61,106 bases of DNA, taken from positions 1-61,106 of the forward strand of contig JAUYMJ010000028.1 of the NCBI GenBank assembly GCA_030698775.1, in the 5' to 3' direction. The position numbers and the translations under genes are program-made. This DNA comes from a bacterium (GTDB lineage: Bacteria; Patescibacteriota; Microgenomatia; Levybacterales; UBA12049). The notes under the pieces were generated by a model. It saw only the letters and a program-made list of their open reading frames with translations. It searched no databases and had not been told where the DNA came from. Positions 6,575 to 44,789 of the stretch are shown here, piece by piece; the first letter of the stretch is position 1, and every line of letters starts with the position of its first letter.

Positions 6575-6577
6575 GTT

Positions 6578-6677: not shown

Positions 6678-6695
6678 ATCTGATATAGTACAAAT

Positions 6696-27687: not shown

Positions 27688-27692
27688 ACAGT

Positions 27693-27804
27693 GAAAATTG
27701 ACCTAATTAACCTAATTATTCTAATTAATCTAAAACAAATCCCAGTTTTCGAAATTGGTGCTTAGTATTTATTTAGAAATTAGATCAATTAGAGCAATTA
27801 GAAA
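27693..27804. repeat. palindromic intergenic element, family B copy 1 (ctaatt/aattag words)
   Basis: gacctaattaacctaatt ... ttagaaattagatcaattagagcaattagaaatt. The right arm nearly equals the reverse complement of the left arm of 44648-44783. Confidence 0.7.
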
Positions 27805-29782: not shown

Positions 29783-29864
29783 ATAGTTGCTACATTGTTA
29801 CCTCGCCTTCGTCCTCTCCCGCTTCGCGGGAGAGGAAACAATAAAATAATTTAACAATCAAACA

Positions 29865-30611: not shown

Positions 30612-30636
30612 AATAGAACAAGAAAACAATGTAACA

Positions 30637-31395: not shown

Positions 31396-31435
31396 CTTGC
31401 AATGGGTCGAGTGATTTCGGAGGATTCCAGAAGTA

Positions 31436-31453
31436 CGGGAAAGATCTTTCCCG
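31436..31453. terminator. 18-bp perfect palindrome after thiX (hairpin, no T-run)
   Basis: cgggaaagatctttcccg. Confidence 0.3.
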
Positions 31454-31479
31454 GCTGTCAGTAAAAAGAGGAGAATCGC

Positions 31480-31508
31480 TTGACATACTCTAGGACGAAA
31501 TGTAAGAT
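31480..31508 (+). promoter_or_regulatory. promoter, leaderless layout
   Basis: TTGACA-17-TAAGAT, then 7 nt to ATG 31516. The ORF-track TTG start is the -35 box. Confidence 0.6.
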
Positions 31509-31515
31509 ACGCTCC

Positions 31516-32226
31516 ATGCGATTAGAACAGGGACAAATTACAGTACTAAAGCAAGAGCAAGCGATAATTGAGAACTCATATAGTTCATTAAAAGATTTTA
31601 TACAAGTTTCATTCGCAATCGATTTTCCAAAAGATATTTCCGGAAAGCGCATTTTGGGCGTTGGAGAAGGACTGTCAGAGGCGACTCTTCGCTTGAGGGA
31701 AATGGGAGCTGAGGCATGGGCTATTGACCCGAAATATGCCGACATGAAAGCTCTCAGAAAGGGTCTTGAGGAGGATCTTACCATTTTTCGAACCTGGCTA
31801 TTAGGGGATCAGTCGATGACTGACTCGGAAAAATACATTATAATGAGGCGTAACACGAATACGGTCGATAGTTTTTTCTCCCCAAATGACAATGCAAACA
31901 GACAATATCATATTGCCGCATCAGCATGTTTTTTACCTTTTGCGGATAGAACATTTGACCTTTATTTTTCAAGCTACGCTGTGAGCAGTTTTCTTCTCCC
32001 AAGCGATGTTGTTTTCAGGCAGGCGATTGATGAGGGTCTTCGTGTGCTAAGGCCAGGTGGTGAATTGCAGCTCTATCCGTGGGTACCAAATGAGAAGGGG
32101 GATCATCCGGAGGAACGAGCAACACAAGAGAGGCTTTTTGAAAATCTGCAATCAAGAAGTATTGCTTTTGCTGTTGAACCGACCTCATATACTACTCCAC
32201 CAAGGCTCAAGATAACATTGCCGTAA
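31516..32226 (+). CDS. class I SAM-dependent methyltransferase
   Basis: RILGVGEGLSEATL (motif I), AWAIDPKY, FDLYFSSYAV and LRPGGELQLYPW. Confidence 0.65.
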   Translation: MRLEQGQITVLKQEQAIIENSYSSLKDFIQVSFAIDFPKDISGKRILGVGEGLSEATLRLREMGAEAWAIDPKYADMKALRKGLEEDLTIFRTWLLGDQSMTDSEKYIIMRRNTNTVDSFFSPNDNANRQYHIAASACFLPFADRTFDLYFSSYAVSSFLLPSDVVFRQAIDEGLRVLRPGGELQLYPWVPNEKGDHPEERATQERLFENLQSRSIAFAVEPTSYTTPPRLKITLP

Positions 32227-32403
32227 GACATAGAGCTCCGACGTAGGATTAGATCCTCTTACACCAACGAATGATTTTTTAGATCCTCGCGATAAAGTAA
32301 TACAGGAATCCTCTCGAGTCGAAGACGAGACTCAGGTCGTCAGATCTGAGCAGCGTGACCCTTGACAAGGGAGGTTTTGTCGTACGCCACAGGCGTACAA
32401 GAT

Positions 32404-33564
32404 ATGAATCTAAGAGACCATAAAGACACAAAAACCAGACGTAGAGCCTTGGAGAAAGAGCTCTCAGTTGATGTACCACATATTGCTGCGTATACCCCTG
32501 ATTTAGAAATTGCATCCACAAAAAATTGCGAGAATATGATTGGTGCAGTGCAGATACCGTTAGGTATCGCAGGTCCATTGAAAATTCAGAGTTCTGAGTT
32601 AAAAGTTCAGAGTTATTATTTACCTTTGGCAACGACGGAAGGTGTGTTGGTTGCGTCGATTAGTCGCGGCTGCAAGGCAATCACACAGGCCGGGGGAGCA
32701 ATCGTGCACACCCATAAAGTTGGGACGACGCGTGGCCCCGTATTTTATACCGGCTCCATCAGGGAAGGGACGAGACTGCACAACTTTGTCAAAAATCAAA
32801 AAGCAAAAATCAAAAAGATTGCAGAGGGTACGTCCAACCATTTGGAGCTGAAAGATATAAAAACAAAGAGCATACCAAACTATACATTTTTGCGTTTTTC
32901 CTACGACACGGGTGATGCCATGGGGATGAATATGGTGACGATCGCGACACAGGCAGCGGGTGAGTTTATTGAAAAAGAAACTGGGATTCCATGTCTTTCG
33001 GTTGCAGGGAATTTTGATGTTGACAAAAAACCGGCCTGGCTTAATTCGATTAACCATAGGGGGATAAAAGCCTGGGCCGAGGTTGTTCTTCAAAGAAGAA
33101 TTCTTAAAGACATACTAAAAACTACACCAGAGAAATTTTTTGATGTCTGGCTAGGGAAGGTGATGCTGGGAAGTGCTGTTTCCGGGTCAATCGGGTTTAA
33201 TGCTCATATCGCCAATGTCATTGCAGCGCTCTTCATAGCGACAGGACAGGATCCATCACACGTTGTTGAAGGATCTTTGGGAATTACTACTGCAAAGGTT
33301 TTGGATAGTGGGGATCTCTATGTTGGTGTCTTTCTCCCTTCCCTTCTTGTTGGTACAGTAGGTGGAGGGACAAGTCTCCCGACGCAAAAAGAAGCACTGT
33401 CGGTACTCGGGGTCAGTGGGGCCGGGAAGGTTGAAGAATTCGCTCAGATTGTTGTAGCAGCCTGTCTGGCAGGAGAGGTTTCACTCTTAGCGAGTTTAAG
33501 CGAGGGTTCACTTGCGAGAGCTCACGAGCGATTAGGTCGGGATACGGTCAAAAATCAAAAATGA
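32404..33564 (+). CDS. mvaA: HMG-CoA reductase, class I (archaeal/eukaryotic catalytic-domain type)
   Basis: ENMIGAVQIPLG, ATTEGVLVAS, DAMGMNMV and GTVGGGT. ATG 32404 lies within the ORF-track frame. Confidence 0.9.
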   Translation: MNLRDHKDTKTRRRALEKELSVDVPHIAAYTPDLEIASTKNCENMIGAVQIPLGIAGPLKIQSSELKVQSYYLPLATTEGVLVASISRGCKAITQAGGAIVHTHKVGTTRGPVFYTGSIREGTRLHNFVKNQKAKIKKIAEGTSNHLELKDIKTKSIPNYTFLRFSYDTGDAMGMNMVTIATQAAGEFIEKETGIPCLSVAGNFDVDKKPAWLNSINHRGIKAWAEVVLQRRILKDILKTTPEKFFDVWLGKVMLGSAVSGSIGFNAHIANVIAALFIATGQDPSHVVEGSLGITTAKVLDSGDLYVGVFLPSLLVGTVGGGTSLPTQKEALSVLGVSGAGKVEEFAQIVVAACLAGEVSLLASLSEGSLARAHERLGRDTVKNQK

Positions 33565-33648
33565 AAGATCAAAAACAAGATCAAAGATAAAAAATTTGAA
33601 ACTTTATGTTTTGGATTTGAGATTTGATCTTTGCGCTTTGAGATTATT
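33551..33648. repeat. palindromic element family A, copy 1
   Basis: aaagatcaaaaacaagatcaaa (33564-33585) and tttgatctttgcgctttgagatt (33623-33645) are identical to the arms at 41559-41580 and 41610-41632. Confidence 0.85.
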
Positions 33649-34686
33649 ATGGTAGGTATAGTCAGTTACGGTACATACATCCCGAAATATCGCATCAAGA
33701 TAGAGGATATTGCAAAGGCGTGGCAGAAAAACCCTGATGATATTGTCGACGCAATCCGTGTAAAAGAGAAAGCAGTTCCCAATACCGACGAAGATGCGAT
33801 CACTATGGGTGTTGAGGCGACGGTACGGGCTCTGCGGACAACAAACCTTGATCCGAAAAAGATCCAGAGTGTCTTCGTCGGATCAGAGAGCCACCCTTAC
33901 GCAGTCAATCCTTCAGCGACAATTATTGCCGAAGCAATCGGCATGGGCAATCACTATTTTGCCGTTGACATGAAGTTTGCATGTAAGGCTGCAACAGCTG
34001 CAATGCAGGTGACGGTCGGATTGCTGGGAAGTGGGGAAATTGAGTATGGGCTAGTTATCGGTTCAGACACTGCGCAAGCAAAACCTCATGACGTACTCGA
34101 GTATAGCGCGGCGAGTCTGGCAGCATCGTATATCTTAGGAAATCACAAAGAAGAGGTGCTTGCAGAAGTTACTGCAATGTCATCTTTTTCCTCAAACACA
34201 CCCGATTTCTGGCGTAGAGACGGCGTGAGATATCCCTCGCATTTTGGCAGGTTTACCGGACAGCCGGCATATTTTGCACATGTTTTAGGTGAGTCGGAGG
34301 CTCTCCTTGAGAAGTCCGGGTTGAGGCCTAAAGATTTTGATTACTGCTTGTTCCACATGCCAAACGGTAAGTTTCCACGTTCTGTTGCAACAAAGCTTGG
34401 GTTCACGAAAGAGCAACTTTTGCCCTCATTGACTGTTGACATGGTCGGTAACCCATATACCGCCTCCGCGTTTCTCGGGCTGGCGGCAATTTTGGATATT
34501 GCCCGTCCCGGACAGAGGATATTCTTTGTATCATACGGTTCAGGCGCCGGGGCAGACGGGTTCATTTTTGAAACGACGAAGAAACTTAAAGATTTTCAGA
34601 AAAAGACGCTTCCTGTTGCAAAACAAATTGCGGATAAAGAATATATTAGTTATTTGGAATATCTGCAGAAGACACACAAGCTTTAA
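33649..34686 (+). CDS. HMG-CoA synthase, archaeal type
   Basis: N-terminal VGIVSYGTYIPKYRIKIEDIA. Thiolase-fold motifs include GSESHPY, the MKFACKAATAA Cys and FHMPNGKF. Confidence 0.85.
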   Translation: MVGIVSYGTYIPKYRIKIEDIAKAWQKNPDDIVDAIRVKEKAVPNTDEDAITMGVEATVRALRTTNLDPKKIQSVFVGSESHPYAVNPSATIIAEAIGMGNHYFAVDMKFACKAATAAMQVTVGLLGSGEIEYGLVIGSDTAQAKPHDVLEYSAASLAASYILGNHKEEVLAEVTAMSSFSSNTPDFWRRDGVRYPSHFGRFTGQPAYFAHVLGESEALLEKSGLRPKDFDYCLFHMPNGKFPRSVATKLGFTKEQLLPSLTVDMVGNPYTASAFLGLAAILDIARPGQRIFFVSYGSGAGADGFIFETTKKLKDFQKKTLPVAKQIADKEYISYLEYLQKTHKL

Positions 34687-34795
34687 AAAGATCAAAATTC
34701 AAAATGCAAAAATCAAATTCACAAATAAAAAGTAAAAATTTTTAGCTTTACGTTAGGTTTTAATCTTTGGTTTTTAATCTTTGCGCTTACATCAT
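34686..34795. repeat. palindromic element family A, copy 2 (diverged)
   Basis: aaagatcaaaattcaaaatgcaaaaatcaaa ... ttttaatctttggtttttaatctttgcgctt. Confidence 0.65.
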
Positions 34796-34801
34796 AATAA
34801 A

Positions 34802-36022
34802 ATGAGAAACGAAAGCATATTTATCATTGGGGCAAGTACAACACGCTTTGGTGAGTTATGGAACAGTTCACCAAGGGAGCTTGCGAAAGAAGCTTTTACA
34901 AATGCGCTGTCTCAGTCCGGAGTTGGCGTTTCAAACATTGAGGCGCTGTATGTCGGAAATATGCTCGGAGGGATGCTTGGTCACCAGGAGAATATCGGTT
35001 CTTTCTATGCTGAAGAGCTGAGTCTTTCACCTGTCCCCGCATTCAGGCTTGAGGCAGCGTGTGCATCAGGTGGCGTTGCTTTGCATAACGCCATAAATAG
35101 TATAAAAGCGGGTTTGTATAAGACTGTTGCCATATTGGGGATTGAGAAAATGACCGATGCGGGAGGGGATCTTGTAGCATCGGCACTCATGGCAGCAGGA
35201 TCTGATGAAGAGCGGGGATCGGGCATTACGTTTCCCGGTCTCTACGCGCTCATGGCACAGGCATACATGCAGCAGTATAAAATCAAGGAGGAAGATTTGG
35301 CTGAAGTTTCTGTAAAAAATCACTATCACGGATCGTTTAACCACAAAGCACAATTCCGGTTTCAGGTAAGTATTGCTGATGTGATGAAGAGTAGCCGTAT
35401 TGCCGATCCGTTGAAGCTTCTTGACTGTTCACCCGTTACCGATGGTGCGGCGTGTCTGGTTATTACACGGGATGAGTCGATTATCCCGAAAAACTCGGTC
35501 TCGATAATTGCAAGCGAAGTAGGAACCGACACGCTGGCACTGCATAAAAGGTCTTCATTTACCTCGCTTCGCTCGGCGAAAGAAGCGGCAAAGCAGGCTT
35601 ATGCAAAAGCGGGAGTAAAAGCAACAGATGTAGATGTCGCTGAGGTGCATGACTGCTTTAGTATTGCAGAGCTTATTGCCCTTGAAGACTTAGAGTTTTC
35701 AGAAGTCGGAAGGGCAGCAGTGGATGTGAAGAAGGGGAAGTTTACAAGAGGAAAGGGAAAGACGATCGTGAATCCATCAGGAGGCCTTAAAGCGTGCGGC
35801 CATCCTGTCGGTGCCACCGGAATTAAACAAGCAGTTGAGATTTATGAACAACTGATGGGGACTGCAGGTGATAAGCAGTCCGTAAAGAATGCAAAGATTG
35901 GTTTGGCACATAATGTCGGCGGATCGGGAGCGATAGCGACGGTACACATATTTAAAAAATCGAAAATGCAAAGCGCAAAGATCAAAACTAAGTTCAAAGT
36001 GCAAAACCTTCAATATTTTTGA
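34802..36022 (+). CDS. acetyl-CoA acetyltransferase (thiolase), archaeal type, with a repeat-encoded tail
   Basis: IIGASTTRFGE, the EAACASG active Cys, CGHPVGATG and NVGGSG. The last 22 codons (KKSKMQSAKIKTKFKVQNLQYF) lie in repeat copy A3. Confidence 0.88.
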   Translation: MRNESIFIIGASTTRFGELWNSSPRELAKEAFTNALSQSGVGVSNIEALYVGNMLGGMLGHQENIGSFYAEELSLSPVPAFRLEAACASGGVALHNAINSIKAGLYKTVAILGIEKMTDAGGDLVASALMAAGSDEERGSGITFPGLYALMAQAYMQQYKIKEEDLAEVSVKNHYHGSFNHKAQFRFQVSIADVMKSSRIADPLKLLDCSPVTDGAACLVITRDESIIPKNSVSIIASEVGTDTLALHKRSSFTSLRSAKEAAKQAYAKAGVKATDVDVAEVHDCFSIAELIALEDLEFSEVGRAAVDVKKGKFTRGKGKTIVNPSGGLKACGHPVGATGIKQAVEIYEQLMGTAGDKQSVKNAKIGLAHNVGGSGAIATVHIFKKSKMQSAKIKTKFKVQNLQYF

Positions 36023-36072
36023 GATTTTAGATGTGGATTTGCTATTTGAGATTTGATTTTTGAATTGATTTT
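35955..36072. repeat. palindromic element family A, copy 3 (left arm inside the thiolase CDS)
   Basis: caaagcgcaaagatcaaa (35969-35986) is the exact reverse complement of tttgatctttgcgctttg in copies 1 and 4. Confidence 0.8.
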
Positions 36073-36375
36073 ATGATAACAACACCCGTCAAACTTTGGA
36101 GAAGAGGAAAAAAACTGGTCAACCATATCGGGAAGACCGGAAAGCTTTTGTACTGGACAATTGTCCGCGTGCCACCGAAAAATTTTGCCGACCAGGCGCC
36201 GTATCCTGTCGGAATTGTGCGCTTAGATGATGGGGAAATGATGGTCGGGCAGCTCGTTGACTGGACGGAGAGGGATTTGAAGAGCGGTGTGAAAGTAGTT
36301 GCCGTCATGCGACGGGTTACTCATGAAGACCCCGAAAACATCATTCCCTACGGCATCAAGTTTAAGCCGGTGTAA
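36073..36375 (+). CDS. DUF35 OB-fold protein (thiolase/HMGCS partner) lacking the zinc ribbon
   Basis: GKLLYWTIVRVPP...PYPVGIVRLDDGEMMVGQLVD is a DUF35 OB-fold pattern. The protein contains no cysteine. Confidence 0.75.
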   Translation: MITTPVKLWRRGKKLVNHIGKTGKLLYWTIVRVPPKNFADQAPYPVGIVRLDDGEMMVGQLVDWTERDLKSGVKVVAVMRRVTHEDPENIIPYGIKFKPV

Positions 36376-36383
36376 CGTCCATC

Positions 36384-37100
36384 TCAAAGATTAGTAACCG
36401 AGATATAAGGCGATCCTCTTTGGGGAGTTACCGAGTGTCCAAGATCAATCATCGTCTCCCCAAAAGCTTCAAGGCTTCCTGCCGGTGCATAGTTTTGTTT
36501 GACATATTCTGTTGGCCCTAGAATAACTCTTGTATCAAGGAGAACCTCGTTTATCTGCGGAAGCGACAGGAGGTCGACGACTGCTCCGACAACACACTTG
36601 TCAGTATATTCTCCACCGACAATAACGTTCGTACTACTCGTGATGCGAAAACGTTTCTCTAGCAGCCGTCTTTCAATTCTTCTTGATGTAACGCTCGGTA
36701 AGGCGATATTTTCTTCGACAAATATATTTTCCGGATATGCAGTCTCAGATTTGCATCTGTTTAAAAGTGAAATCCAGGACAAAGGAACTCTTCCATTCTG
36801 CGTAAAAAGATCTACCTGTCTCCATGTAGCCATGACATATTTTCCGAGATCCTCTGGTTTTGGCCCGGCATTCGGAATAAAGAGCAAGAGATCTTTTGGG
36901 GAGCTAGGCAAAAAATATTTGAGGACTTTGTTTTGAAAATCTGCGCGAACGCGGAATACCTGATTCGTCCAAAGTAAATCTTCCCCAAATTTCGCATCGT
37001 AAGCGTGAATCAGAAAGCGGAGATTATCGATGTCTATAGGCTTGAGATTCTCACCGGCTTCTGTAGGTAGTTGGCTCTTGGTTTCAAGCCGTGTCTGCAT
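36384..37100 (-). CDS. hypothetical protein, possible isochorismatase-like cysteine hydrolase fold
   Basis: IVGGEYTDKCVVGAVVD resembles the GG.xTD.CV motif. It is the only antisense gene in the mevalonate cluster. Confidence 0.5.
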   Translation of the reverse strand: MQTRLETKSQLPTEAGENLKPIDIDNLRFLIHAYDAKFGEDLLWTNQVFRVRADFQNKVLKYFLPSSPKDLLLFIPNAGPKPEDLGKYVMATWRQVDLFTQNGRVPLSWISLLNRCKSETAYPENIFVEENIALPSVTSRRIERRLLEKRFRITSSTNVIVGGEYTDKCVVGAVVDLLSLPQINEVLLDTRVILGPTEYVKQNYAPAGSLEAFGETMIDLGHSVTPQRGSPYISVTNL

Positions 37101-37137
37101 GGTGGGGATTATACCAAGATTTATGTATAATACCCAT

Positions 37138-38205
37138 ATGAAGCCGATTACCGTTTCAGCTCCCGGGAAAATTCACCTCATGGGCGAGCACGCAGTCGTA
37201 TATGGTAAACCGGCGCTCCTTGCAGCAATCGACCGCCGCTGCAAAGTCTCTTTGATGCCGCGAGGTGATAGGAATATCCAGATCATCTCAAAAGACACAG
37301 GCCTTGATGTCACACTGTCACTCGATGAGGTATTGGAAAAGACCTACCATGCCCAGAAGCAATGGGAGGACTTTTTGGAAAAAAAAGACGCACAGATTCT
37401 CAAAGCGATTACCAAAGATCCTGCTGATTACCTCTCGATTGCAGTCGGTGAAACGCTTATTTATTTCGGCATGCCTCCGGAGAGTGGCTTTACGATTACC
37501 GTCTCATCTGACATCCCGATGGGTGCGGGGCTTGGTTCATCTGCAGCACTTGCGGCTGCGGTAGCTTCTGCTATTATGACGTTTCTTGGCAAGAAGCTTG
37601 ATATGTGGACAATCCATGAAATTGCTCTCCTTATTGAGCAGAAAAGACATGGTAATCCGTCTGGTGGTGATACGGCAATCGTTTCAAGTGGAAACCTTAT
37701 CTGGTTTCGGAAGGAATCCGAGGTACTAAAAGTGGTCCAGCGGGTGCCGTTTGGGATTTTGGATCCGATTGCCTCGCGGTTTTTCCTTGTCGATACGGGT
37801 ATTCCTGAGGAATCAACCGGTGAGATGGTGCAAGCGGTCAGGGATCTCTATGACGAGAAAATTGAGTTTGTGGCAAATGTGTTTAATGACTTGGAGAAAG
37901 TGACTCGGGATATGGTAATTGTTTTGAAAAATAATCACGAAGGAGATCTCATCGAGATAATTAGACAGGGAGAGAAACATCTCGAGCAGCTCGAGGTAGT
38001 CTCAGATGAGGTAAAAGAGGTTATCAGAAGTATCGAAGGCTCAGGAGGCGCTGCAAAAATTTCTGGGGGAGGAGGGAAGCTAAAAGGCACAGGACATCTC
38101 CTCGTCTACCACAAAGATAAAAAGACACTTGAGGATGTTTTGGCAAAGTTCAATCTTATGCCGGTTGCCATCCGTCTTGGCGCTTCGGGTCTAACCGTGC
38201 ACTAG
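37138..38205 (+). CDS. mvk: mevalonate kinase (GHMP family)
   Basis: SAPGKIHLMGEHAVVYG, PMGAGLGSSAALAAA and KISGGGGK. TATAAT lies 6 nt before ATG 37138. Confidence 0.85.
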   Translation: MKPITVSAPGKIHLMGEHAVVYGKPALLAAIDRRCKVSLMPRGDRNIQIISKDTGLDVTLSLDEVLEKTYHAQKQWEDFLEKKDAQILKAITKDPADYLSIAVGETLIYFGMPPESGFTITVSSDIPMGAGLGSSAALAAAVASAIMTFLGKKLDMWTIHEIALLIEQKRHGNPSGGDTAIVSSGNLIWFRKESEVLKVVQRVPFGILDPIASRFFLVDTGIPEESTGEMVQAVRDLYDEKIEFVANVFNDLEKVTRDMVIVLKNNHEGDLIEIIRQGEKHLEQLEVVSDEVKEVIRSIEGSGGAAKISGGGGKLKGTGHLLVYHKDKKTLEDVLAKFNLMPVAIRLGASGLTVH

Positions 38206-38261
38206 TTTATTCTTCGAGCTTTTGATTTTTCCCGGGTAAACCCGAATAGATTAGTTTAACA

Positions 38262-39266
38262 ATGAAGCAATTTAACAATGCAGCAATGAATCCCATCACT
38301 GTTTCAGCTCCCGGAAAACTCATGCTCTTTGGTGAACATGCAGTTGTCTATGGGCATCCCTGCATTGTCACGGCTGTGGGGCAGAGGATGTTTTTGACAG
38401 TGCAAACGCTAAACTCCAAACTCTTAACTCTAAACTCTCCAGAAGTAAATGTGACCAATTATTCAAAACTCTTGGACCAGCTAGGGGAAGGAGAGATGCC
38501 AAAAGGTGCACGGTTTATAGAAATTGCAGTCAAAAATTTTTCTGAAAAGTATACGGTCAAGTCAGGATTGCAGATTACAACGCGGTCAGAATTCGCATCA
38601 ACGTTTGGATTCGGTTCTTCAAGTGCATCTACAGTATGTACGATAAAAGCGCTGTCTGAATTATTTGATTTAAAATTATCAAACAAAGAAATCTTTGACC
38701 TCTCTTACAAAACTGTTTTGGATGTGCAGGGCAAGGGCTCGGGGTTTGATGTCGCGGCAGCAATTTATGGCGGGTCGCTCCTTTTTTTTACTGGAGGAAA
38801 AGAAATTACACCATTAACCATAAACCATTTACCAGTAATCATCGGTTATAGCGGCATAAAAGCAGATACGGTCAGGCTTATTGAAAAAGTCGCCGAGAAA
38901 GCAGAAAAAGAGCCTGAAGTCGTTGAAGATATTTATAAGAGGATAGAGCAAATCGTTGAGAAGGCAAAGACCGCGATTGAGAAAAGTGATTTTGAAGAGG
39001 CGGGGAAACTTATGACGGAAAACCAACTGCTTTTAAGTCAATTGGACGTCAGCAGTGAAAAGCTTGATGCTATGATACAAGCAGCAAGAGATGCCGGAGC
39101 ATATGGTGCGAAATTGTCAGGAGCGGGAGGGGGGGACTGTATGATTGCCCTTCGTAATGCTCAGGGAAAACCCGCAGTTGAAAAAGCTATTGAGAGGGTT
39201 GGCGGGCAAGTGATTGATGTTGAGACAAATGTGGAAGGAGTGAGAGTTGAGAATAAACAAATGTAA
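38262..39266 (+). CDS. second mevalonate-kinase-like GHMP kinase (phosphomevalonate kinase candidate)
   Basis: SAPGKLMLFGEHAVVYG, FGFGSSSAST and KLSGAGGGDCMIAL. An alternative ATG lies at 38286. Confidence 0.75.
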   Translation: MKQFNNAAMNPITVSAPGKLMLFGEHAVVYGHPCIVTAVGQRMFLTVQTLNSKLLTLNSPEVNVTNYSKLLDQLGEGEMPKGARFIEIAVKNFSEKYTVKSGLQITTRSEFASTFGFGSSSASTVCTIKALSELFDLKLSNKEIFDLSYKTVLDVQGKGSGFDVAAAIYGGSLLFFTGGKEITPLTINHLPVIIGYSGIKADTVRLIEKVAEKAEKEPEVVEDIYKRIEQIVEKAKTAIEKSDFEEAGKLMTENQLLLSQLDVSSEKLDAMIQAARDAGAYGAKLSGAGGGDCMIALRNAQGKPAVEKAIERVGGQVIDVETNVEGVRVENKQM

Positions 39267-39269
39267 ATT

Positions 39270-40250
39270 ATGAAAGCAACAGCGAAAGCACCATCAAATA
39301 TCGCATTTATCAAATATTGGGGACGGAAGGATGAAGCATTGAAACTTCCGAGTAACGGAAGTGTCTCTATGAATTTGTCAGGACTCACGACGACTACGAC
39401 AGTTGAATTTTCTCCAGACTATAAAGAAGATGAGATAATAATTAACGGCATACTGGAGCCAGAAGAAAAAACAGCAAAAATTTTCAGTCACTTGGACAGA
39501 ATCCGAAAGTTTGCAAAGATTGATGAAAAAGCAAAAATAGTTTCAGAAAATAGTTTTCCCCGGGGAACAGGTTTGTCATCATCCGCCTCAGGATTTGCTG
39601 CGTTAACATTGGCCGCATCAAAAGCTGCTGGTTTGGATTTGTCCGAAAAAGAGTTGTCAATTTTGGCAAGACAAGGATCCGGATCTGCCTGCCGTTCTAT
39701 TCCTGACGGATTTGTTGAGTGGTTGGATGGCGATACATCAGAAGACTCGTATGCTGTTTCACTCTATCCTCCTGAGCATTGGGATCTCGTCGATATCGCC
39801 GTGATCTTGACAGAACAAGTCAAGGATGTCAGCACGACAGAAGGACAGAAATTAGCAGCGACGAGTCCTTTCTTTGAAGCGAGACAAAGTAAAATCAAAG
39901 ATAAAATAGTAAAGATCAAAGACTATCTCAAAAATAAAAACTTTGAGAAATTTGGGGAATTAGTGGAGTCTGAGGCCTTGGAGCTTCATGCAATAATGCT
40001 CACTTCACAGCCATCCCTTATCTACATAAATCCAGCAACGGTTGCTGTTATGAAAGCAGTCAAGAAGTGGAGGAGTGAAGGTTTACAAGTCTATTTCACC
40101 CTAAACACAGGACAGAATATTCATTTGATTTGTGAGAAAATCTCAGCAGCAGCGGTTGTCAGTAAAGTGAAAGAATCTGAATTCGCACAAGCGATTATTG
40201 AAAATGCACCGTCGAGAGGGGCAGGCATAGCTGACCACCATCTCTTCTGA
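39270..40250 (+). CDS. mvaD: diphosphomevalonate decarboxylase family (MDD/PMD)
   Basis: APSNIAFIKYWGRKD, GTGLSSSASGFAAL and QGSGSACRS. Confidence 0.88.
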   Translation: MKATAKAPSNIAFIKYWGRKDEALKLPSNGSVSMNLSGLTTTTTVEFSPDYKEDEIIINGILEPEEKTAKIFSHLDRIRKFAKIDEKAKIVSENSFPRGTGLSSSASGFAALTLAASKAAGLDLSEKELSILARQGSGSACRSIPDGFVEWLDGDTSEDSYAVSLYPPEHWDLVDIAVILTEQVKDVSTTEGQKLAATSPFFEARQSKIKDKIVKIKDYLKNKNFEKFGELVESEALELHAIMLTSQPSLIYINPATVAVMKAVKKWRSEGLQVYFTLNTGQNIHLICEKISAAAVVSKVKESEFAQAIIENAPSRGAGIADHHLF

Positions 40251-40302
40251 GCTTATAAATCTTATAGTATTTTTCACCAAAACATGGTAAAATAGTACAT
40301 CT

Positions 40303-40998
40303 ATGGGTATTGGTCCTGAAAATTTTACGCCAATTAATAAAGACTTTGTTTTACCTCTTGCGTTTCCGCAGGGAGAAGTACCTTCTTCTGCATCACCAGA
40401 CAATATTAACCCGGTAACATTTTCTTTTGTGCAGACAGCATTTGTCAGGGGGGTTCATGAGCGTCTTCCTCTCCCGGCAGTGAAGGCAGAAGGTCAAGGC
40501 CCTGACACTAAAGAAAATATTTCCGTTTGGGCTGACCAAAGAAGAGTATGGGTAGCGACGCACCAGGTTTTAGAAGGTGGGTCGTTGGCGAGTATCGAAA
40601 AAGCAGGACAGGTTTCCCGACAGAGAATAAGTATTCTTGTAAAAGAAGGGCTTGCGATTCTTTGGGAACTATCTGATGATCCGGTCAAACAAAAGTACCC
40701 ACTTGAGATAGTGAAAGAGTTTTTTGTGAGACCACAAAAAAGGATGCTTCCTGAGAAAACACCTGAAGAAATCGCTGAAAGAAAAAAACAAACATCTGAT
40801 CGCCTGAGCGCTGCACTTACGGGAAGAACATTGTCAAGATCTCATAGGGAGAATCTTAGCGCTGCGAAACTCGGTAAAAAAAGAGAACCATACTCAGAGG
40901 AGTGGCGTCGAAATATAAGTATTGGGAGAAGAAGAATTCCGTCACGAAAAGATTCTCAGAAGACAGAAGAAACTGATGCGTACACTGCAATAACATGA
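40303..40998 (+). CDS. orphan DNA-binding protein: HTH plus two NUMOD3-like repeats, no nuclease domain recognised
   Basis: SLASIEKAGQVSRQRISILVKEGL (HTH-like). GRTLSRSHRENLSAAKLGKK and EPYSEEWRRNISIGRRR are NUMOD3-like. It has its own extended -10 TGgTAAAAT (40285-40293). Confidence 0.6.
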   Translation: MGIGPENFTPINKDFVLPLAFPQGEVPSSASPDNINPVTFSFVQTAFVRGVHERLPLPAVKAEGQGPDTKENISVWADQRRVWVATHQVLEGGSLASIEKAGQVSRQRISILVKEGLAILWELSDDPVKQKYPLEIVKEFFVRPQKRMLPEKTPEEIAERKKQTSDRLSAALTGRTLSRSHRENLSAAKLGKKREPYSEEWRRNISIGRRRIPSRKDSQKTEETDAYTAIT

Positions 40999-41585
40999 GA
41001 CGAGGAATTCTTTCAATGAAAAAAAACACCACTCGCCAAATGCTTATTATTGTCGATGATAATGACGTCCCGACCGGGCAGTATGAAGACAAAGGCGAGT
41101 GTCATTTCGGAGATGGGATCCATCACCGCGCATTTGTTGTTTTATTGGAAAACTTCAAAGGTGAAGTGCTCCTGCAGCTTCGTAAACACGTCAGATGGGA
41201 CAAGTATTGGGATCTGACTGCAATAAGCCATGTTTTACACTTTCGGCCAGACCATAACGAAAGTTATCAGGAAGCAGCTCTTCGATCACTAAAAGAAGAG
41301 ATGGGGATTACAAATGTTACAATTAAAAAAATTGGGGGGTTTAATTATTTTGCAAAATACCATTCTCACTGTGAGAATGAATACTGTGCAGTACTGATTG
41401 GTATATATAACGGTAAGATTGCTCCAAATACTGATGTGATTTACGAATACAAATGGATGCCGAAAAACGCTTTCATCAACGATGTTGAACAGTTTCCTGA
41501 GAAATATACACCGTGGGCTGTTGAGGGAGTGAAAATATTAGATCAAAATTCAGAAATCAAAGATCAAAAACAAGATCAAAAATAA
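40995..41585 (+). CDS. idi: type 1 isopentenyl-diphosphate isomerase-like Nudix protein
   Basis: HRAF, WDKYWD, ENEYCAVL and EYKWMP parallel E. coli Idi. The start overlaps the upstream stop (ATGA), and an alternative ATG lies at 41016. Confidence 0.75.
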   Translation: MRRGILSMKKNTTRQMLIIVDDNDVPTGQYEDKGECHFGDGIHHRAFVVLLENFKGEVLLQLRKHVRWDKYWDLTAISHVLHFRPDHNESYQEAALRSLKEEMGITNVTIKKIGGFNYFAKYHSHCENEYCAVLIGIYNGKIAPNTDVIYEYKWMPKNAFINDVEQFPEKYTPWAVEGVKILDQNSEIKDQKQDQK

Positions 41586-41640
41586 AAGTTTTTACGCTTT
41601 ACGCTAGACTTTGATCTTTGCGCTTTGAGATTTGAGCTGT
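41541..41640. repeat. palindromic element family A, copy 4 (left arm encodes the idi C-terminus)
   Basis: The 41559-41580 and 41610-41632 arms are identical to copy 1. Confidence 0.85.
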
Positions 41641-41650
41641 GAGATACGTG

Positions 41651-41701
41651 ATCCTGAAACAAGCCGCCAGAGGCGAGCCTCGCCTTCGGCGGGTTCAGGA
41701 T
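41651..41701 (+). repeat. GC-rich long hairpin upstream of uppS
   Basis: atcctgaaacaagccgccagaggcgagcctcgccttcggcgggttcaggat. Confidence 0.7.
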
Positions 41702-41712
41702 GACAATTAACC

Positions 41713-42399
41713 ATGGAAAACAAAATTCCAAATCACATTGCTTTCATCATGGATGGCAACCGTAGGTGGGCGAGTGCCCACAAATTGGAGATGCTGTTTG
41801 GTCATGACAAGGGAGCCCATCAGATAGAGCCTTTGGTTGCATATGCCTCAAAGCAGGGAATTTCTTATGTCACATTCTGGGCGTTCTCAACAGAGAATTG
41901 GCAGCGCACTGAAAAAGAAGTCGCTGTCCTTATGGAAGTCTTTAGGAGGATGTTTCGTGATCCTATGGTAGACAGAATGAAGAAAAATGACGTGAAGTTT
42001 AACGTCATCGGTGATACCAGTAAGTTTCCTCAGGACATCCAAGACGATCTTCGAAAATTGCTTGAAGAAACAAAAAATAATAAAAAAATTACCGTGACGA
42101 TCGCGCTCAACTACGGTGGTCGGGATGAGATACTTCGCGCTGTGCGTGATGCAGTCAGTGCGCAGCAAACAGTAATCAGTGAAGATGCTTTTGGGCAGTT
42201 GTTATTCACAAAGGATCTTCCTGATCCCGATTTTCTGATTCGAACTGGTGGGGAGATGCGTCTTAGTGGGTTCCAGCCGTGGCAGACAGTATATACAGAA
42301 CTCTATTTCACCGATGTGTTGTGGCCGGATTTTGACGAAAAGGAGTTTCAAAAAGCACTTGATGAGTTTGATTTGCGGGAGAGGCGTTTTGGAAGATAG
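41713..42399 (+). CDS. uppS: undecaprenyl diphosphate synthase
   Basis: HIAFIMDGNRRWA, FSTENWQR and the RTGGEMRLSGF pattern. Confidence 0.93.
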   Translation: MENKIPNHIAFIMDGNRRWASAHKLEMLFGHDKGAHQIEPLVAYASKQGISYVTFWAFSTENWQRTEKEVAVLMEVFRRMFRDPMVDRMKKNDVKFNVIGDTSKFPQDIQDDLRKLLEETKNNKKITVTIALNYGGRDEILRAVRDAVSAQQTVISEDAFGQLLFTKDLPDPDFLIRTGGEMRLSGFQPWQTVYTELYFTDVLWPDFDEKEFQKALDEFDLRERRFGR

Positions 42400-42448
42400 C
42401 TTCAGAAATACTTGAAAAGATTTTTCCAATACCGTATTCTTATATTGC

Positions 42449-42604
42449 ATGGCAGAACAGCAAGTAGGTCAGGAAGCAATTTTAAAAAAGACAACGAAGC
42501 CGGAACGGCCGACTCCCCGTTCGCTCGATGTCTGGACAAATGCTCGGCTTACAAGAGCTGAAGCGTGGAGAAAAATGATTCAGCAGGGTAAATGGGGAAA
42601 ATAA
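42449..42604 (+). CDS. possible small ORF (51 aa)
   Basis: My translation is MAEQQVGQEAILKKTTKPERPTPRSLDVWTNARLTRAEAWRKMIQQGKWGK*. It has no homology or SD support. Confidence 0.2.
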   Translation: MAEQQVGQEAILKKTTKPERPTPRSLDVWTNARLTRAEAWRKMIQQGKWGK

Positions 42605-42613
42605 TTTTTCCTC

Positions 42614-42642
42614 TTGCATTTCCGAAATTCATTTTGTATAGT
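42614..42642 (+). promoter_or_regulatory. promoter of the serine operon with a ~110-nt pyrimidine-rich leader
   Basis: TTGCAT-17-TATAGT. Confidence 0.55.
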
Positions 42643-42754
42643 AACTTTGCTCCCATGATATAGCAACGCCCCCACATCACTTCTTTTTTTCTCTTGGTCT
42701 CTAATATTTTTTCTTTTCTCAACAATTTAACAATCCAACCATCTCGCAATTATT

Positions 42755-44647: not shown

Positions 44648-44783
44648 ATTTACCTAATTGCTCTAATTAACCTAATTTCTAAAGAATTACAAAATAAATA
44701 TATTAGGAATTGGGATTTTCCTCCAGAGGCGGATCAGCCTTTGGCTGAGATTAGGTCAATTAGAAATTGGAATAATTAGAAAT
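44648..44783. repeat. palindromic intergenic element, family B copy 2, with a central GC hairpin
   Basis: tacctaattgctctaattaacctaatttctaaag ... tcagcctttggctga ... ggtcaattagaaattggaataattagaaatt. Confidence 0.7.
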
Positions 44784-44789
44784 TTGTTT

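Follow-up and report, generated by a model that had tools for sequence, protein, structure and literature searches.

Rickettsia palindromic elements (RPEs) are palindromic repeats that lie between genes and also in frame within genes, where they add peptide segments (PMC10969869). The elements described here, from a 61,106-nt stretch of Levybacteria DNA (hereafter the window), share with RPEs their character as ~100-150-nt palindromic repeats that fall into several families, have no transposase associated with them, and occur in a small reduced genome, as well as the use of both intergenic and in-frame sites, in this case an insertion in dnaX and three C-terminal tails. The likeness is one of description. 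RPEs belong to the Alphaproteobacteria, whereas the present host is a member of the candidate phyla radiation; arms built as heptamer microsatellites with 7-nt slippage are a feature of the elements here; the family termed Family A lengthens C-termini and makes no internal insertion; and copies appear to be low in number and locally spread.

MITEs in operons are co-transcribed and can form hairpins in the RNA, and strains differ in whether a given copy is present (PMC10969869). Like Chunjie of Geobacter and Correia/NEMIS of Neisseria, the present elements are short, AT-rich, non-autonomous inverted repeats in intergenic positions within operons. However, no discrete, well-delimited terminal inverted repeat was found, and internal heptamer periodicity is not a MITE feature; Correia is known to carry internal promoters and IHF sites and to undergo RNase III processing. 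Reading of the flanks of the copies revealed neither a target-site duplication nor a parent insertion sequence, so membership in the MITEs cannot be shown. REPs are GC-rich sequences of 20-40 nt with a GTAG/CGTC tag and >100 copies (PMC2817692, PMC3733652). REP, BIME, and REPIN families are likewise extragenic imperfect palindromes at 3' ends or between cistrons, long persistent and conserved, but the elements here are ~100 nt long, 24-27% GC, and untagged. Identification as REPs was rejected by definition, the elements being neither GC-rich nor tagged with GTAG/CGTC nor associated with a RAYT. No RAYT is present in the window, and the RAYT-type Y1 transposase encoded by the related genome L003 is flanked by its own repeats, which are GC-rich and different (GGGGACGGTCC).

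MIRUs, which Supply and colleagues reportedly proposed in 1997 to preserve translational coupling, also occupy intercistronic operon spacers and reach the flanking stop and start codons, but they are direct tandem repeats of 46-101 bp with small ORFs and have no dyad-symmetric arrays of 7-nt units. The hairpin-forming organellar repeats of Volvox, the RHEs of sponges, and the 'palindromic microsatellite' repeats of Fusarium (PMC2670323, PMC2800124, PMC7218506) are similarly short and microsatellite-like and proliferate in small-genome intergenic DNA without a known transposase; they belong to eukaryotic organelle genomes, their sequences are unrelated, and they have no operon-junction setting. 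The small repeat elements of Levybacteria, built from a 7-base tandem unit, are a previously undescribed class. Within this wider class, which consists of heptamer-periodic AT-rich palindromes and occurs window-wide and in related Levybacteria, Family A is a single local sub-family.

Family A in and around the mevalonate cluster

Five full copies of Family A were found in the window, four within the mevalonate cluster and one, diverged, outside it. The genes of the cluster (HMGR, HMGS, thiolase, DUF35/OB, GHMP kinases, MDD, NUDIX/idi, and UPPS) were correctly identified in the first-pass annotation, and the four ~100-nt AT-rich elements reported there are present, in agreement with the profile envelopes (as listed for copies 1-3, and 41538-41639 for copy 4). 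Envelopes and E-values for Family A are based on a profile built from the four mevalonate-cluster copies.

33543-33648, plus strand: Family A copy 1, HMGR/HMGS junction (profile E=8.5e-24)
34686-34791, plus strand: Family A copy 2, HMGS/thiolase junction (profile E=2.8e-22)
35955-36070, plus strand: Family A copy 3, thiolase/DUF35 junction (profile match)
41538-41643, plus strand: Family A copy 4, idi/UPPS junction (profile E=6.3e-26)
41648-41704, plus strand: GC-rich stem-loop between copy 4 and the UPPS start (MFE -34.7 kcal/mol, z -4.7)
25725-25852, strand unassigned, best match minus: fifth copy of Family A, diverged and lying outside the mevalonate cluster (E=7.9e-5)
2769-2814, plus strand: half-element, ATCTCAA x5 array of the Family A motif type (E=3.2e-4)

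Copy 1 comprises an A-rich left array (33548-33595) and a T-rich right array (33610-33645), of 7.1 and 5.3 copies with TRF period 7; the HMGR stop TGA (33562-33564) falls within the left arm, and the HMGS ATG is at 33650. Copy 2 begins directly after the HMGS stop TAA (34684-34686), with its left array at 34692-34740 and the thiolase ATG at 34802. In copy 3 the loop holds the thiolase stop TGA (36020-36022), the right array spans 36018-36056, and the DUF35 ATG is at 36073, while copy 4 has the idi stop TAA at 41583-41585 and a right array at 41591-41643 (TRF period 7, 5.0 copies). The stem-loop at 41648-41704 is separate from Family A and has no T-run 3' of it.

The arms AAAGATCAAAAACAAGATCAAA and TTTGATCTTTGCGCTTTGAGATT (22 and 23 nt) are exact in both copies 1 and 4, as first read, and recur with 3 mismatches in copy 3, against a chance expectation of 0.00-0.01. 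The reverse-complement arm noted earlier in copy 3 is likewise exact: caaagcgcaaagatcaaa, at 35969-35986 in its left arm, reads on the opposite strand as the core of the right arms of copies 1 and 4. Copies 1, 2, and 4 align over their whole length at 73-85% identity (73% across 99 nt for copies 2 and 4; 85% over 59 nt for copies 1 and 4, which lie 8 kb apart). The proposed preference for gene junctions is borne out by all five full copies; 92.5% of the window is coding. A pattern search found no classical terminator or sigma-70 promoter pattern inside the elements, in keeping with the earlier statement that they are not classical terminators, and Rfam returned no match for Family A.

The supposed confinement of Family A to the mevalonate cluster does not hold, given the fifth copy and the half-element. 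The former sits between an unknown ORF (25092-25664) and cysS (25861-27291), just upstream of cysS, and aligns with Family A in heptamer register. The latter lies within a 6-phosphogluconate-dehydrogenase-like gene, coincides with a frameshift there, and is 79-83% complementary to the right arms of copies 1 and 3. A nested GC-rich mini-palindrome is present in the right arm of the fifth copy at about 25810-25830.

Heptamer architecture and RNA folding

In Family A elements an A-rich (NNNCAAA)n array comes first and a T-rich (TTTGNNN)n array second; the arms are period-7 arrays by TRF, and the CAAA/TTTG cores recur every 7 bp, as inverted arrays, in each of the five copies. The first reading described the elements but overlooked both these tandem arrays and the place of Family A in a window- and lineage-wide class. 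The window contains 17 period-7 arrays, some of them within genes, versus 1.3 in shuffles (a 13-fold excess), and 7 is the modal tandem period in four relatives. Start-codon contexts are also tandemly repeated (AACAATGAA at 29836-29866, 30609-30649, and 38255-38290).

Folded as RNA, copies 1-4 give energies of -12 to -21 kcal/mol, the weakest hairpin being that of copy 2 (MFE -12.1 kcal/mol, z -0.55), and the fifth copy gives -28 kcal/mol. The z-scores are -0.6 to -2.6 relative to shuffles preserving the composition of each half, and -1.2 to +0.35 relative to permuted 7-nt blocks of the same elements. Family A thus folds, but no better than its block permutations, and the symmetry is therefore between repeat motifs and not one of mirror order; the original description as palindromic applies at the level of motifs in the two arrays and not beyond it. 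Copies 1-4 share just a weak consensus RNA structure (-2.9 kcal/mol), and no bias between sense and antisense folding was found (14/21, p=0.11). Other families of the wider class are true palindromes, far more stable than controls (z -2.5 to -6.6).

Translated arms

Three Family A left arms (copies 1, 3, and 4) are translated as C-terminal tails absent from orthologues, which end earlier, as the initial reading of these arms had implied.

33544-33564, plus strand: HMGR tail (D)TVKNQK with stop, ~5 residues past the orthologous end
35960-36022, plus strand: thiolase tail SKMQSAKIKTKFKVQNLQYF with stop, ~20 residues, present in no orthologue
41544-41585, plus strand: idi (NUDIX) tail QNSEIKDQKQDQK with stop, ~13 residues past the orthologous end

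The C-terminus of HMGR is ..RLGRDTVKNQK here and ..RLGRGK in relatives. Thiolase ends in VHIFKKSKMQSAKIKTKFKVQNLQYF versus VHIFKKE, the entire left arm of copy 3 being translated, and idi ends in ..VKILDQNSEIKDQKQDQK versus ..VKFLE, with the left arm of copy 4 translated. The orthologue comparison suggested earlier for thiolase gives a length of 406 aa here versus 384-387 aa in homologues of 83-87% identity, from which the tail is missing.

The wider class in the window

Analogous elements of other sequence families occupy at least seven further sites in the window, including the following.

11045-11143, strand unassigned: AATTTGA family (score 19; E=3.4e-11)
12394-12497, plus strand: AGAATCT/TTCTACA heptamers, ybeY/dnaX junction (score 18)
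12689-12795, plus strand: TAGCGTC heptamers, in frame within dnaX (z -4.9)
27679-27815, minus strand: 9-nt units (AATTAACCT), between two minus-strand genes (score 19)
44645-44805, plus strand: second copy with 9-nt units, co-directional junction (z -4.3; E=1.8e-39 / 2e-23)

The element at 11045-11143 fills the spacer between two convergent stop codons, and that at 12394-12497 folds with z -4.2 (-3.2 against block permutations). The dnaX element adds ~30 residues between LNCE and PCxxC, has an MFE of -38.3 kcal/mol (z -4.3), and resembles the neighbouring intergenic element at 14089-14152 (z 7). The two elements with 9-nt units are paralogues. Palindromes occur in 0 of 9 divergent (promoter-only) spacers versus 10 of 34 spacers with a 3' end; although the numbers are small, absence from divergent spacers is a prediction of a transcript-level role.

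Junctions in related genomes

In L050, L051, and L052 (66-71% thiolase identity) the spacers at HMGR/HMGS, HMGS/thiolase, and thiolase/DUF35 are -20 to +13 nt, and the idi/UPPS spacer of L051 is also within this range; in the window, L001, L003, L006/7, L053, and L055 most of these mevalonate junctions have spacers of 36-135 nt. The operon is compact in more distant relatives, where stops and starts overlap, and the elements are therefore derived insertions. The comparison with related genomes proposed in the first pass does reveal the wider class in related Levybacteria, with the same families at differing junctions, but occupancy within the sub-lineage is sporadic: the thiolase/DUF35 spacer of L001 is 5 nt, the HMGS/thiolase spacer of L006/7 is 26 nt, spacers of L054 are 13-42 nt throughout, and HMGR and HMGS of L055 overlap. 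Sister genomes have unrelated sequence or none at the same junctions, and the motifs at orthologous junctions differ (AAATCCT, CATTGTT, ATGTCAA, AATTTGA).

Copying between junctions is evident in L055, where elements at two neighbouring junctions differ by 1 mismatch in about 50 nt, loop sequence included. The AATTTGA family is found at a convergent junction in the window and at mevalonate junctions in L006 and L007; the CATTGTT family is found at HMGR/HMGS in L003 and at DUF35/MK1 in L053, with 24 nt identical; and the ATGTCAA family, which has 2 compensatory pairs in 22, has a further match at the MK2/MDD junction of L006/7. Orthologous elements vary by 7- and 14-nt indels, and a 58-nt indel of the hairpin core, flanked by 9-nt direct repeats, distinguishes L006 from L007. 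The earlier suggestion of 'REP/MITE-like elements that spread locally' was the better half of its interpretation, in view of the alignable copies, the near-identical neighbours in L055, the shifting junctions, and the element-free distant relatives; local spread stands, while the REP label fails by definition and the MITE label is putative. The other half, a cis-regulatory or RNA-processing signal punctuating one operon, is not supported in that form, given the unrelated or empty sister junctions, the copies outside the operon, and the weak consensus fold.

The orthologous thiolase/DUF35 element of L003, L053, and L055 is 84-87% identical, whereas the genes on either side reach 46-57% at third codon positions (p 4e-9 to 4e-16). 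Conservation is likewise seen between L001 and L053 in the HMGS/thiolase element (z 9.7; 82% identity in the last 40 nt), and an invariant GGTAGTATTTGACA is found immediately 5' of the ATG in some conserved orthologous elements. In most elements the base of the hairpin lies 0-5 nt from the upstream stop and the downstream start. Genes 3' of elements have neither a Shine-Dalgarno sequence nor the TATAAT-N6-8-ATG leaderless promoters found at other genes here, and must therefore be translated from polycistronic mRNA.

Alternative explanations

The assembly artefact that the first-pass annotation named as a danger, collapsed or chimeric low-complexity joins, is scarcely credible: despite the low sequence complexity and a heptamer run (2769-2803) coinciding with a frameshift that is possibly an error of sequencing or assembly, the genes around every element follow the order conserved in 10 related loci, L006 and L007 share elements although they come from different samples, and related loci that were assembled independently show such elements again, at 100% (10.7 kb) and 99.96% identity, so the elements are not artefacts. 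The regular 7-bp CAAA/TTTG core of all five copies would suit iterated sites (TTTGNNN / NNNCAAA) of a regulator or nucleoid protein co-regulating the mevalonate genes at the DNA level. Such binding arrays are nevertheless very unlikely, given that orthologous junctions of sister genomes bear other motifs or none, that the fifth copy lies upstream of cysS and the half-copy within an unrelated gene, that a 7-bp spacing puts successive sites on different helix faces, and that the elements occupy intercistronic sites rather than the operon promoter. Growth in place at each junction, as a mutational by-product without mobility, is also unlikely. A 7-nt seed slipping at the stop/start seam, together with intrastrand template switching that copies arm to arm, would account for the excess of period-7 arrays (genes included), the repeated start-codon contexts, the 7- and 14-nt indels, the lack of mirror order in Family A arms, and the finding of no transposase in the window, and similarity among copies would then reflect low-complexity convergence or short-tract gene conversion. 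Convergence does not, however, explain the exact 22/23-nt arms and 85% identity of copies 8 kb apart or the L055 paralogues with their shared loop; one family also occurs at non-orthologous junctions of different genomes, and a 107-nt palindrome lies in the middle of dnaX without a stop/start seed.

It is possible, though on balance doubtful, that these are functional intercistronic RNA elements that keep the translational coupling of the ancestral stop/start overlap. The U-rich right arm would be the Shine-Dalgarno-less initiation region of the downstream gene, masked by an A-rich left arm at or within the 3' end of the upstream gene until the terminating ribosome melted the hairpin; variants would make the elements RNase III-type processing sites or 3'-end stabilisers along the polycistronic mRNA. 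Such a role is consistent with the conservation of some orthologous elements far beyond synonymous sites and their invariant GGTAGTATTTGACA, the initiation context of the genes that follow, the closeness of hairpin bases to flanking stops and starts, the true palindromes of other families, their avoidance of divergent spacers, and the compensatory pairs of the ATGTCAA family. In archaea, HMGS, thiolase, and DUF35 are joined in a single enzyme complex, which stoichiometric coupling would suit. Yet the elements are dispensable, the same junction being empty or overlapping in L054, L055, L001, and all more distant relatives; Family A hairpins are weak and no better than block permutations; a sense-strand G-U bias was not found; spacer-filling geometry is trivial if insertion made the spacer; the stop varies in position relative to the arm (before, inside, or in the loop); and the same class lies in frame in dnaX, where such a role cannot apply.

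Proposed origin

The reading that is somewhat favoured here is that the elements are selfish or nearly neutral passengers of the RPE/MITE kind, some perhaps since useful, with Family A a local, rather degenerate sub-family of ~70-160-nt AT-rich non-coding repeats across the Levybacteria lineage. The arms are tandem 7-nt units (9-nt in one family), the second complementing the first. The ancestral mevalonate operon was probably compact, with stop and start codons overlapping or abutting, the state found in more distant relatives; judging from presence and absence between genomes, insertion in the sub-lineage of the window would have taken place exactly at the stop/start seams, presumably the only sites in a 92%-coding genome that accept ~100 nt without gene loss. 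Spread to nearby junctions, which the near-identical neighbouring paralogues show, may have proceeded by transposition in trans, gene conversion, or template switching; with no transposase found in the window, and neither target-site duplication nor parent insertion sequence, the mechanism of mobilisation remains putative. Arms lengthen and shorten by slipped-strand events in the observed 7-nt steps, and entire hairpin cores drop out between short direct repeats, as seen between L006 and L007.

Such insertions could be tolerated in that readthrough of an A-rich arm would add merely a short hydrophilic K/Q/N-rich tail, and fold-back would hold the flanking stop and start close. Coding sequence has been invaded, by the ~30-residue in-frame insertion exactly at the palindrome in dnaX, which is of one family with the intergenic element nearby, and by the three Family A tails. 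The elements are probably co-transcribed within the operon mRNA, because there is no promoter or terminator pattern inside them. The conservation of these orthologous thiolase/DUF35 and HMGS/thiolase elements suggests that purifying selection acts on some elements at least; a purely selfish or neutral origin fits this only if the sequence is kept for mobilisation, as in REPINs. The 84-87% versus 46-57% difference makes it possible that some elements have been co-opted for an RNA role such as translational coupling.

Gene content of the mevalonate locus

The closest homologues of the window's thiolase are 83-87% identical to it and are named as proteins of Candidatus Levybacteria and Parcubacteria metagenome-assembled genomes, and on the basis of these names the window is assigned to a Levybacteria-like CPR bacterium. 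Gene identities in the mevalonate string were taken from Pfam, which agrees with the first-pass annotation on HMG-CoA reductase, thiolase and idi.

Genes of the mevalonate string, in order, as identified with Pfam.
ATG at 32404 to 33564: HMG-CoA reductase (HMGR)
33650-34686: HMG-CoA synthase (HMGS)
34802-36022: thiolase
36073-36375: DUF35/OB-fold protein
After DUF35, in order: two GHMP kinases (MK1, MK2), diphosphomevalonate decarboxylase (MDD), unknown ORF
40995-41585: NUDIX-type idi
41713-42399: UPP synthase (UPPS)

Extra small ORFs of unknown function, some of them on the opposite strand, lie between the DUF35 gene and the first kinase gene (36384-37100, minus strand). They have equivalents in L001, L003, L006/7 and L054 (L numbers denote related loci from other assemblies unless stated otherwise) and are further insertions in the element-bearing sub-lineage, breaking the ancestral operon. 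Directly upstream of HMGR lies a TTGACAAGGGAGGnTTTGTC motif (window 32358-32406, L001 ~7560-7580, L050 ~7785-7806, L006 ~7725-7748), a small inverted repeat exposing a GGGAGG Shine-Dalgarno-like loop, which is present in L001, L006/7 and L050, diverged in L054, and absent from L003, L051 and L052. The window has an extra 17-nt hairpin, gtacgccacaggcgtac, inserted between this motif and the HMGR ATG.

Anatomy of the Family A elements

The first-pass annotation had placed four AT-rich elements at junctions of this cluster, and all four are found there: copy 1 at HMGR|HMGS, copy 2 at HMGS|thiolase, copy 3 at thiolase|DUF35, and copy 4 at idi|UPPS. These Family A elements are real, reproducible and junction-preferring, and are 100-116 nt long with a GC content of 24-27%. 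The exact arm sharing described for copies 1 and 4 is reproduced, with a 22-nt left arm and a 23-nt right arm identical between them and three mismatches in copy 3, where 0.00-0.01 arm matches are expected by chance; in copy 3 the right-arm core also appears as its exact reverse complement, at 35969-35986, as had been noticed. Whole-element identity is 85% over 59 nt for copies 1 and 4, and 73% over 99 nt for copies 2 and 4. The proposed confinement to the mevalonate cluster, however, is contradicted by a profile of the four copies, which finds a fifth, diverged copy of 128 nt at 25725-25852 (E=8e-5), directly upstream of cysS, and a half-element at 2769-2814 (E=3e-4) within a 6-phosphogluconate-dehydrogenase-like gene, giving five copies and one half-copy in the 61-kb window.

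The arms are tandem arrays of 7-nt units, a feature overlooked by the first-pass annotation. TRF reports period 7 with 5-7 copies at 33548-33595, 33610-33645, 34692-34740, 36018-36056 and 41609-41643, and the alignment of all copies settles in a heptamer register of NNNCAAA units in the left arm and TTTGNNN units in the right. The elements had been called palindromic; dyad symmetry is present at the level of this motif, but RNA folding and block permutations show that Family A is not a mirror palindrome. The predicted folds are long, imperfect hairpins (-12 to -25 kcal/mol). Their z is -0.5 to -1.9 relative to dinucleotide shuffles and -0.6 to -2.6 relative to shuffles preserving the composition of each half, and only -1.2 to +0.35 relative to permutations of each element's own 7-nt blocks. 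RNAalifold pairing is limited to the CAAA/UUUG blocks, with a total energy of -2.9 kcal/mol; with two compensatory pairs among four sequences, covariation is uninformative.

The left arms are translated, as previously proposed, and provide HMGR, thiolase and idi with C-terminal tails that relatives lack. HMGR ends in RLGRDTVKNQK, in contrast to an end near RLGRGK in seven relatives; thiolase ends in VHIFKKSKMQSAKIKTKFKVQNLQYF, compared with VHIFKKE, VHIFRRI or VHIFKKNNF; and idi ends in VKILDQNSEIKDQKQDQK, compared with VKFLE, the stop codon following directly in each case. In the thiolase comparison suggested for the tail, homologues of 384-387 aa cover 94% of the query.

Downstream of copy 4 and ahead of the UPPS start there is a strong GC-rich stem-loop (41648-41704; -34.7 kcal/mol, z -4.7) with no T-run following. 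The fifth copy has a smaller GC-rich palindrome (CCTGCCTGCC..GGCAGGCAGG) nested in it at 25801-25835, and another of this kind is found at 11657-11691.

Mevalonate junctions among relatives

The orthologous locus was compared in ten other assemblies. In three more distant Levybacteria (L050-L052; 66-71% thiolase identity) the operon is compact, with HMGR|HMGS spacers of 2, 1 and 13 nt, a 4-nt overlap or 4-nt gap at HMGS|thiolase, an overlap or a spacer of 3-5 nt at thiolase|DUF35, and an overlap at idi|UPPS (L051). Within the window's sub-lineage (83-87% identity) AT-rich heptamer palindromes of 36-135 nt occupy these junctions sporadically; the thiolase|DUF35 junction of L001 measures 5 nt and the HMGS|thiolase junction of L006/7 26 nt, spacers in L054 are only 13-42 nt throughout, and HMGR and HMGS overlap in L055. 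The elements are derived, having been inserted at seams where the genes formerly overlapped.

One junction usually holds a different sequence in each genome, built from TCAAAAA/TTTGAGA in the window, AAATCCT in L001, CATTGTT in L003, AATTTGA in L006/7 and GATTAAC in L053. The elements nevertheless form multi-copy families: the AATTTGA family accounts for the window element 11045-11143 and for elements at mevalonate junctions of L006/7, the CATTGTT family is found at HMGR|HMGS in L003 and DUF35|MK1 in L053 with 24 identical bases, and the ATGTCAA family at thiolase|DUF35 in L003, L053 and L055 and at MK2|MDD in L006/7. Copies also pass between nearby junctions. One family tends to occupy neighbouring junctions within a genome, as with the window's cluster copies, all four of which are Family A, and two adjacent junction copies in L055 differ by one base in ~50.

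A start-codon context, AACAATGAA, is tandemly repeated with 8- and 16-nt periods upstream of or across several starts in the window (29836-29866, 30609-30649, 38255-38290) and in L053 (2990-3026, 4150-4181), and is one arm of the CATTGTT/AACAATG palindrome family of L003 and L053.

Step-wise change of the elements

The arms alter in heptamer steps: the left arrays of orthologous ATGTCAA elements differ by indels of 7 and 14 nt. Hairpin cores can be lost between direct repeats, as in the HMGR|HMGS element of L006 (8901-8936) and L007 (8843-8936), two genomes 96% identical, which differ there by a 58-nt indel of the core between 9-nt direct repeats TTTGAAATT. Their other junction elements are identical or nearly so and match the coding DNA in degree of conservation, with 2.6% mismatches in elements versus 4.1% in coding DNA.

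The 6-phosphogluconate-dehydrogenase-like gene (2657-3588) is split by a frameshift located exactly in a (CTCAAAT)x3 run at 2771-2791. After 50 N-terminal aa the reading frame meets a TAA at 2807, and the remaining protein is encoded in another frame. A change of +7 nt (one unit) or -14 nt (two units) would bring the two parts back into register; the frameshift could be a slippage polymorphism, a pseudogene or an assembly error.

The wider class in the window and elsewhere

Period-7 arrays number 17 in the window versus 1.3 in dinucleotide shuffles, and the commonest period in L001, L003, L006 and L007 is again 7. Long imperfect palindromes scoring at least 14 number 12, versus 1-6 in shuffles.

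Wider-class palindromes in the window.
11045-11143: between convergent stop codons
11919-12004: gene junction
12394-12497: gene junction
12689-12795: TAGCGTC-family 107-nt heptamer palindrome, in frame within dnaX (12509-14089)
14089-14152: intergenic, just after dnaX
27679-27815 and 44645-44805: two-copy family of 9-nt units, gene junctions

Unlike Family A, most of these members are true palindromes: half-preserving shuffles give z of -2.5 to -5.2 and block permutations z as low as -4.1, although the element at 11045-11143 is indistinguishable from controls. Palindromes scoring at least 13 occur in 9 of 30 co-directional, 1 of 4 convergent and 0 of 9 divergent spacers.

Translation can run through an element, and an element can also lie in frame within a gene. 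In the alignment of the window's DnaX with that of E. coli, residues 3-62 match 6-66 and residues 97-329 match 71-301, and the ~30 extra residues, RLAPSTLGSSSKKEKDNKEGDKKLSAKRPTLDAHVE, which follow LNCE and precede the PCxxC zinc module, coincide exactly with the palindrome. Its predicted fold (-38.3 kcal/mol) has z -4.3, and local alignment (z 7) links it to the intergenic element at 14089-14152.

A GC-richer junction palindrome at 6574-6681, with arms ..GTTGTCATTGCGA.. and ..TCGCAATGACA.. and core GAGATTGCTTCG, recurs at L003 1631-1781 and is therefore regarded as one more repeat family, outside the heptamer class. Between map and infA of L052 (1571-1708) there is a strong heptamer palindrome of CGAAATC units (-34 kcal/mol, z -6.6); since this distant relative has a compact mevalonate operon, the heptamer class predates invasion of the operon. 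GCGCAAA/GATCAAA/GTGCAAA heptamer palindromes also follow gene ends in four termite-gut-type metagenome contigs of ~50% GC, seemingly from other organisms (L021 783-863, L029 559-637, L030 659-731, L031 376-462), one of them inside an IS630-like transposase region. These contigs were chosen by the heptamer pattern itself and have no bearing on homology; heptamer-built hairpins may occur beyond Levybacteria too.

Conservation and expression signals

The thiolase|DUF35 elements of L003, L053 and L055 align over 87-94 bases with 84-87% identity (z 12-16 relative to half-preserving shuffles); in the thiolase and DUF35 genes on either side, identity at third codon positions is only 46-57% (binomial p 4e-9 to 4e-16). 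The final ~20 nt ahead of the DUF35 ATG are invariant in these three loci, and the HMGS|thiolase elements of L001 and L053 are likewise conserved (z 9.7). Because their identity exceeds that of third codon positions, some elements are under constraint, which could serve host function or, in the manner of REPINs, continued mobilisation.

Most genes in the locus have no Shine-Dalgarno sequence. TATAAT is found 6-8 nt upstream of the ATG, with no Shine-Dalgarno, at several genes including MK1 and idi (window 37115-37140, L001 12840-12865, L006 13395-13419, L003 11375-11398), a pattern suggesting that leaderless mRNAs are common in this lineage. Genes downstream of elements have neither a Shine-Dalgarno sequence nor the TATAAT-N6-8-ATG leaderless promoter found at MK1 and idi, and inspection by eye reveals no TATAAT 5-9 nt upstream of element-following ATGs. 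These genes are therefore expected to be translated from polycistronic RNA across the element, which leaves room for a role in translational coupling. The sense fold is more stable than the antisense fold in 14 of 21 elements (mean difference -2.6 kcal/mol, p=0.11).

The statement that the elements are not classical terminators is borne out, as they have AT-rich stems and no hairpin-plus-T-run, and none of 19 pattern matches in 30000-45000 falls inside an element. A promoter or terminator reading was rejected, there being no match to sigma-70 or terminator consensus in the elements and regional counts equal to those in shuffles. Rfam 15 gives no match at gathering score in the whole window and none at E<=1 in 32000-42500.

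Comparison with known kinds of element

REPs and REPINs are G+C-rich imperfect palindromes of 20-40 nt, in contrast to Family A at 100-116 nt and 24-27% GC. The GTAG or CGTC tetranucleotide conserved at one end of REPs (PMC3733652) is absent from the ends of the four Family A copies, the sole GTAG lying within the HMGS start (ATGGTAGG). No RAYT, the Y1 transposase tied to REPs, flanked by the same repeat is present within the 61-kb window, and tblastn of the L003 RAYT against the window finds nothing below E=0.36. The elements thus fail the set of size, GC, tag and RAYT features that defines REPs (PMC2817692, PMC3733652). REPs number more than 100 per genome; the 61-kb window by itself has five Family A copies and one half-copy.

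L003 has a RAYT-like Y1 transposase gene (3973-4623) beside HMGR, flanked by inverted GC-rich repeats of the GGGGACGGTCC type (3880-3960, 4625-4680), and a gene-less pair of such repeats lies 5 kb away (9910-10078); this locus is a classical REP/RAYT arrangement in a Levybacteria genome. A link between RAYT/REP and the heptamer elements was rejected, as this RAYT is flanked by its own GC-rich repeats and not by heptamer elements, and the window has no Y1 transposase.

Like MITEs, Family A elements are small (50-500 bp), AT-rich, non-coding and multi-copy, and they resemble operon-resident MITEs. MITEs have defined terminal inverted repeats; in Family A dyad symmetry at the motif level runs through the whole element, and the ends are fuzzy heptamer arrays. 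Around the profile envelopes of copies 1-4 no direct repeat of 2-10 nt is shared, a result weakened by their uncertain boundaries. Because neither a target-site duplication nor, within the window, a parent insertion sequence is found, MITE membership cannot be shown. Rickettsia palindromic elements (RPEs) are the closest in behaviour, as they too comprise several families, lack a transposase and can lie in frame inside genes (PMC10969869). They are ~100-150 nt and lie both between genes and in frame in ORFs, as do the present elements with the dnaX insertion and three C-terminal tails; sequence homology to RPE families is not expected, the host being a Levybacteria-like CPR bacterium. Intrinsic terminators have a G+C-rich stem of 5-20 bp followed by a T-run, which these elements lack, and MIRUs consist of direct tandem units of 46-101 bp with small ORFs over the flanking stop and start, unlike the two complementary arrays of 7-nt units found here. 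Heptamer-microsatellite architecture and step-wise evolution are features of none of these kinds, and the elements are small palindromic repeat elements, a known kind, in a previously unseen form.

The searchable literature yielded no description of MITEs or heptamer palindromes in Patescibacteria/CPR; according to one survey, inverted repeats are denser in CPR phyla than in any other phylum (PMC13155455). The exact 20-nt right arm has six matches in 185,579 species genomes (the window's genome not among them), all chance and in Proteobacteria, and a gapped two-arm scan of metagenome contigs (the window's contig not among them) gives 36, nearly all chance matches in GC-rich coding DNA. Other candidates were rejected. 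Dam sites are not enriched (234 GATC versus 231 expected), and a diversity-generating retroelement, considered for the A-rich arms, is at odds with inter-copy differences that are not restricted to adenines. TIGR guide-RNA arrays, which surfaced in the CPR literature and have ~36-nt units in long arrays beside a Tas gene, were set aside on that anatomy.

Interpretation

The first-pass annotation is partly right on anatomy and partly on interpretation. No transposase-like ORF adjoins any Family A copy, as it had stated, and of its suggestion of REP/MITE-like elements the mobile-repeat behaviour stands (families, local copying, derived insertions), whereas the REP features fail and neither a target-site duplication nor, within the window, a parent insertion sequence is found. 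We hold with moderate confidence that the elements are selfish or tolerated repeats resembling RPEs and MITEs. Such repeats would be co-transcribed, and might be tolerated because the A-rich arm encodes a harmless K/Q/N-rich peptide and the element folds back, and they could spread without a cis-encoded transposase by means of a trans-acting enzyme, gene conversion or template switching.

Co-option for an intercistronic RNA function is possible but doubtful; the constraint on some elements could reflect host function or mobilisation. We consider it rather unlikely that the heptamer hairpins are a selected, evolvable substitute for stop/start overlap in a largely Shine-Dalgarno-less lineage, in which the A-rich arm, where the upstream cistron ends, would mask the U-rich initiation region of the next until the terminating ribosome melts it, with coupling tuned in 7-nt slippage steps; if true, this would be a new, sequence-independent operon punctuation in CPR bacteria. 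Pure in-place slippage without mobility would produce the heptamer indels but is set against families shared among junctions and near-identical adjacent copies, and appears improbable. A function as DNA-binding arrays would draw on the tandem units, and is very improbable where one junction usually differs in sequence between genomes. The chance of an assembly artefact, raised by the first-pass annotation, is close to negligible: independently assembled L001 and L002 are 100% identical over 10.7 kb and L003 and L004 99.96% identical, junction elements included in both pairs.

Implications for CPR genomes

CPR genomes are tiny and densely packed and are generally thought to be poor in repetitive DNA. 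Here small repeats have forced gaps into several seams of a conserved, translationally coupled operon, tailed three enzymes and added ~30 residues to DnaX, spreading without a visible transposase and changing like microsatellites in 7-nt steps. The conservation of some elements above synonymous sites makes selfish spread versus co-option directly testable. If the class is general, it would be an overlooked source of genome and proteome variation in CPR bacteria and a practical risk to gene prediction, in the form of false C-terminal extensions, frameshifts and split genes, and would also provide a natural experiment on how internal cistrons are translated in SD-poor, leaderless-prone bacteria after stop/start overlap is lost.
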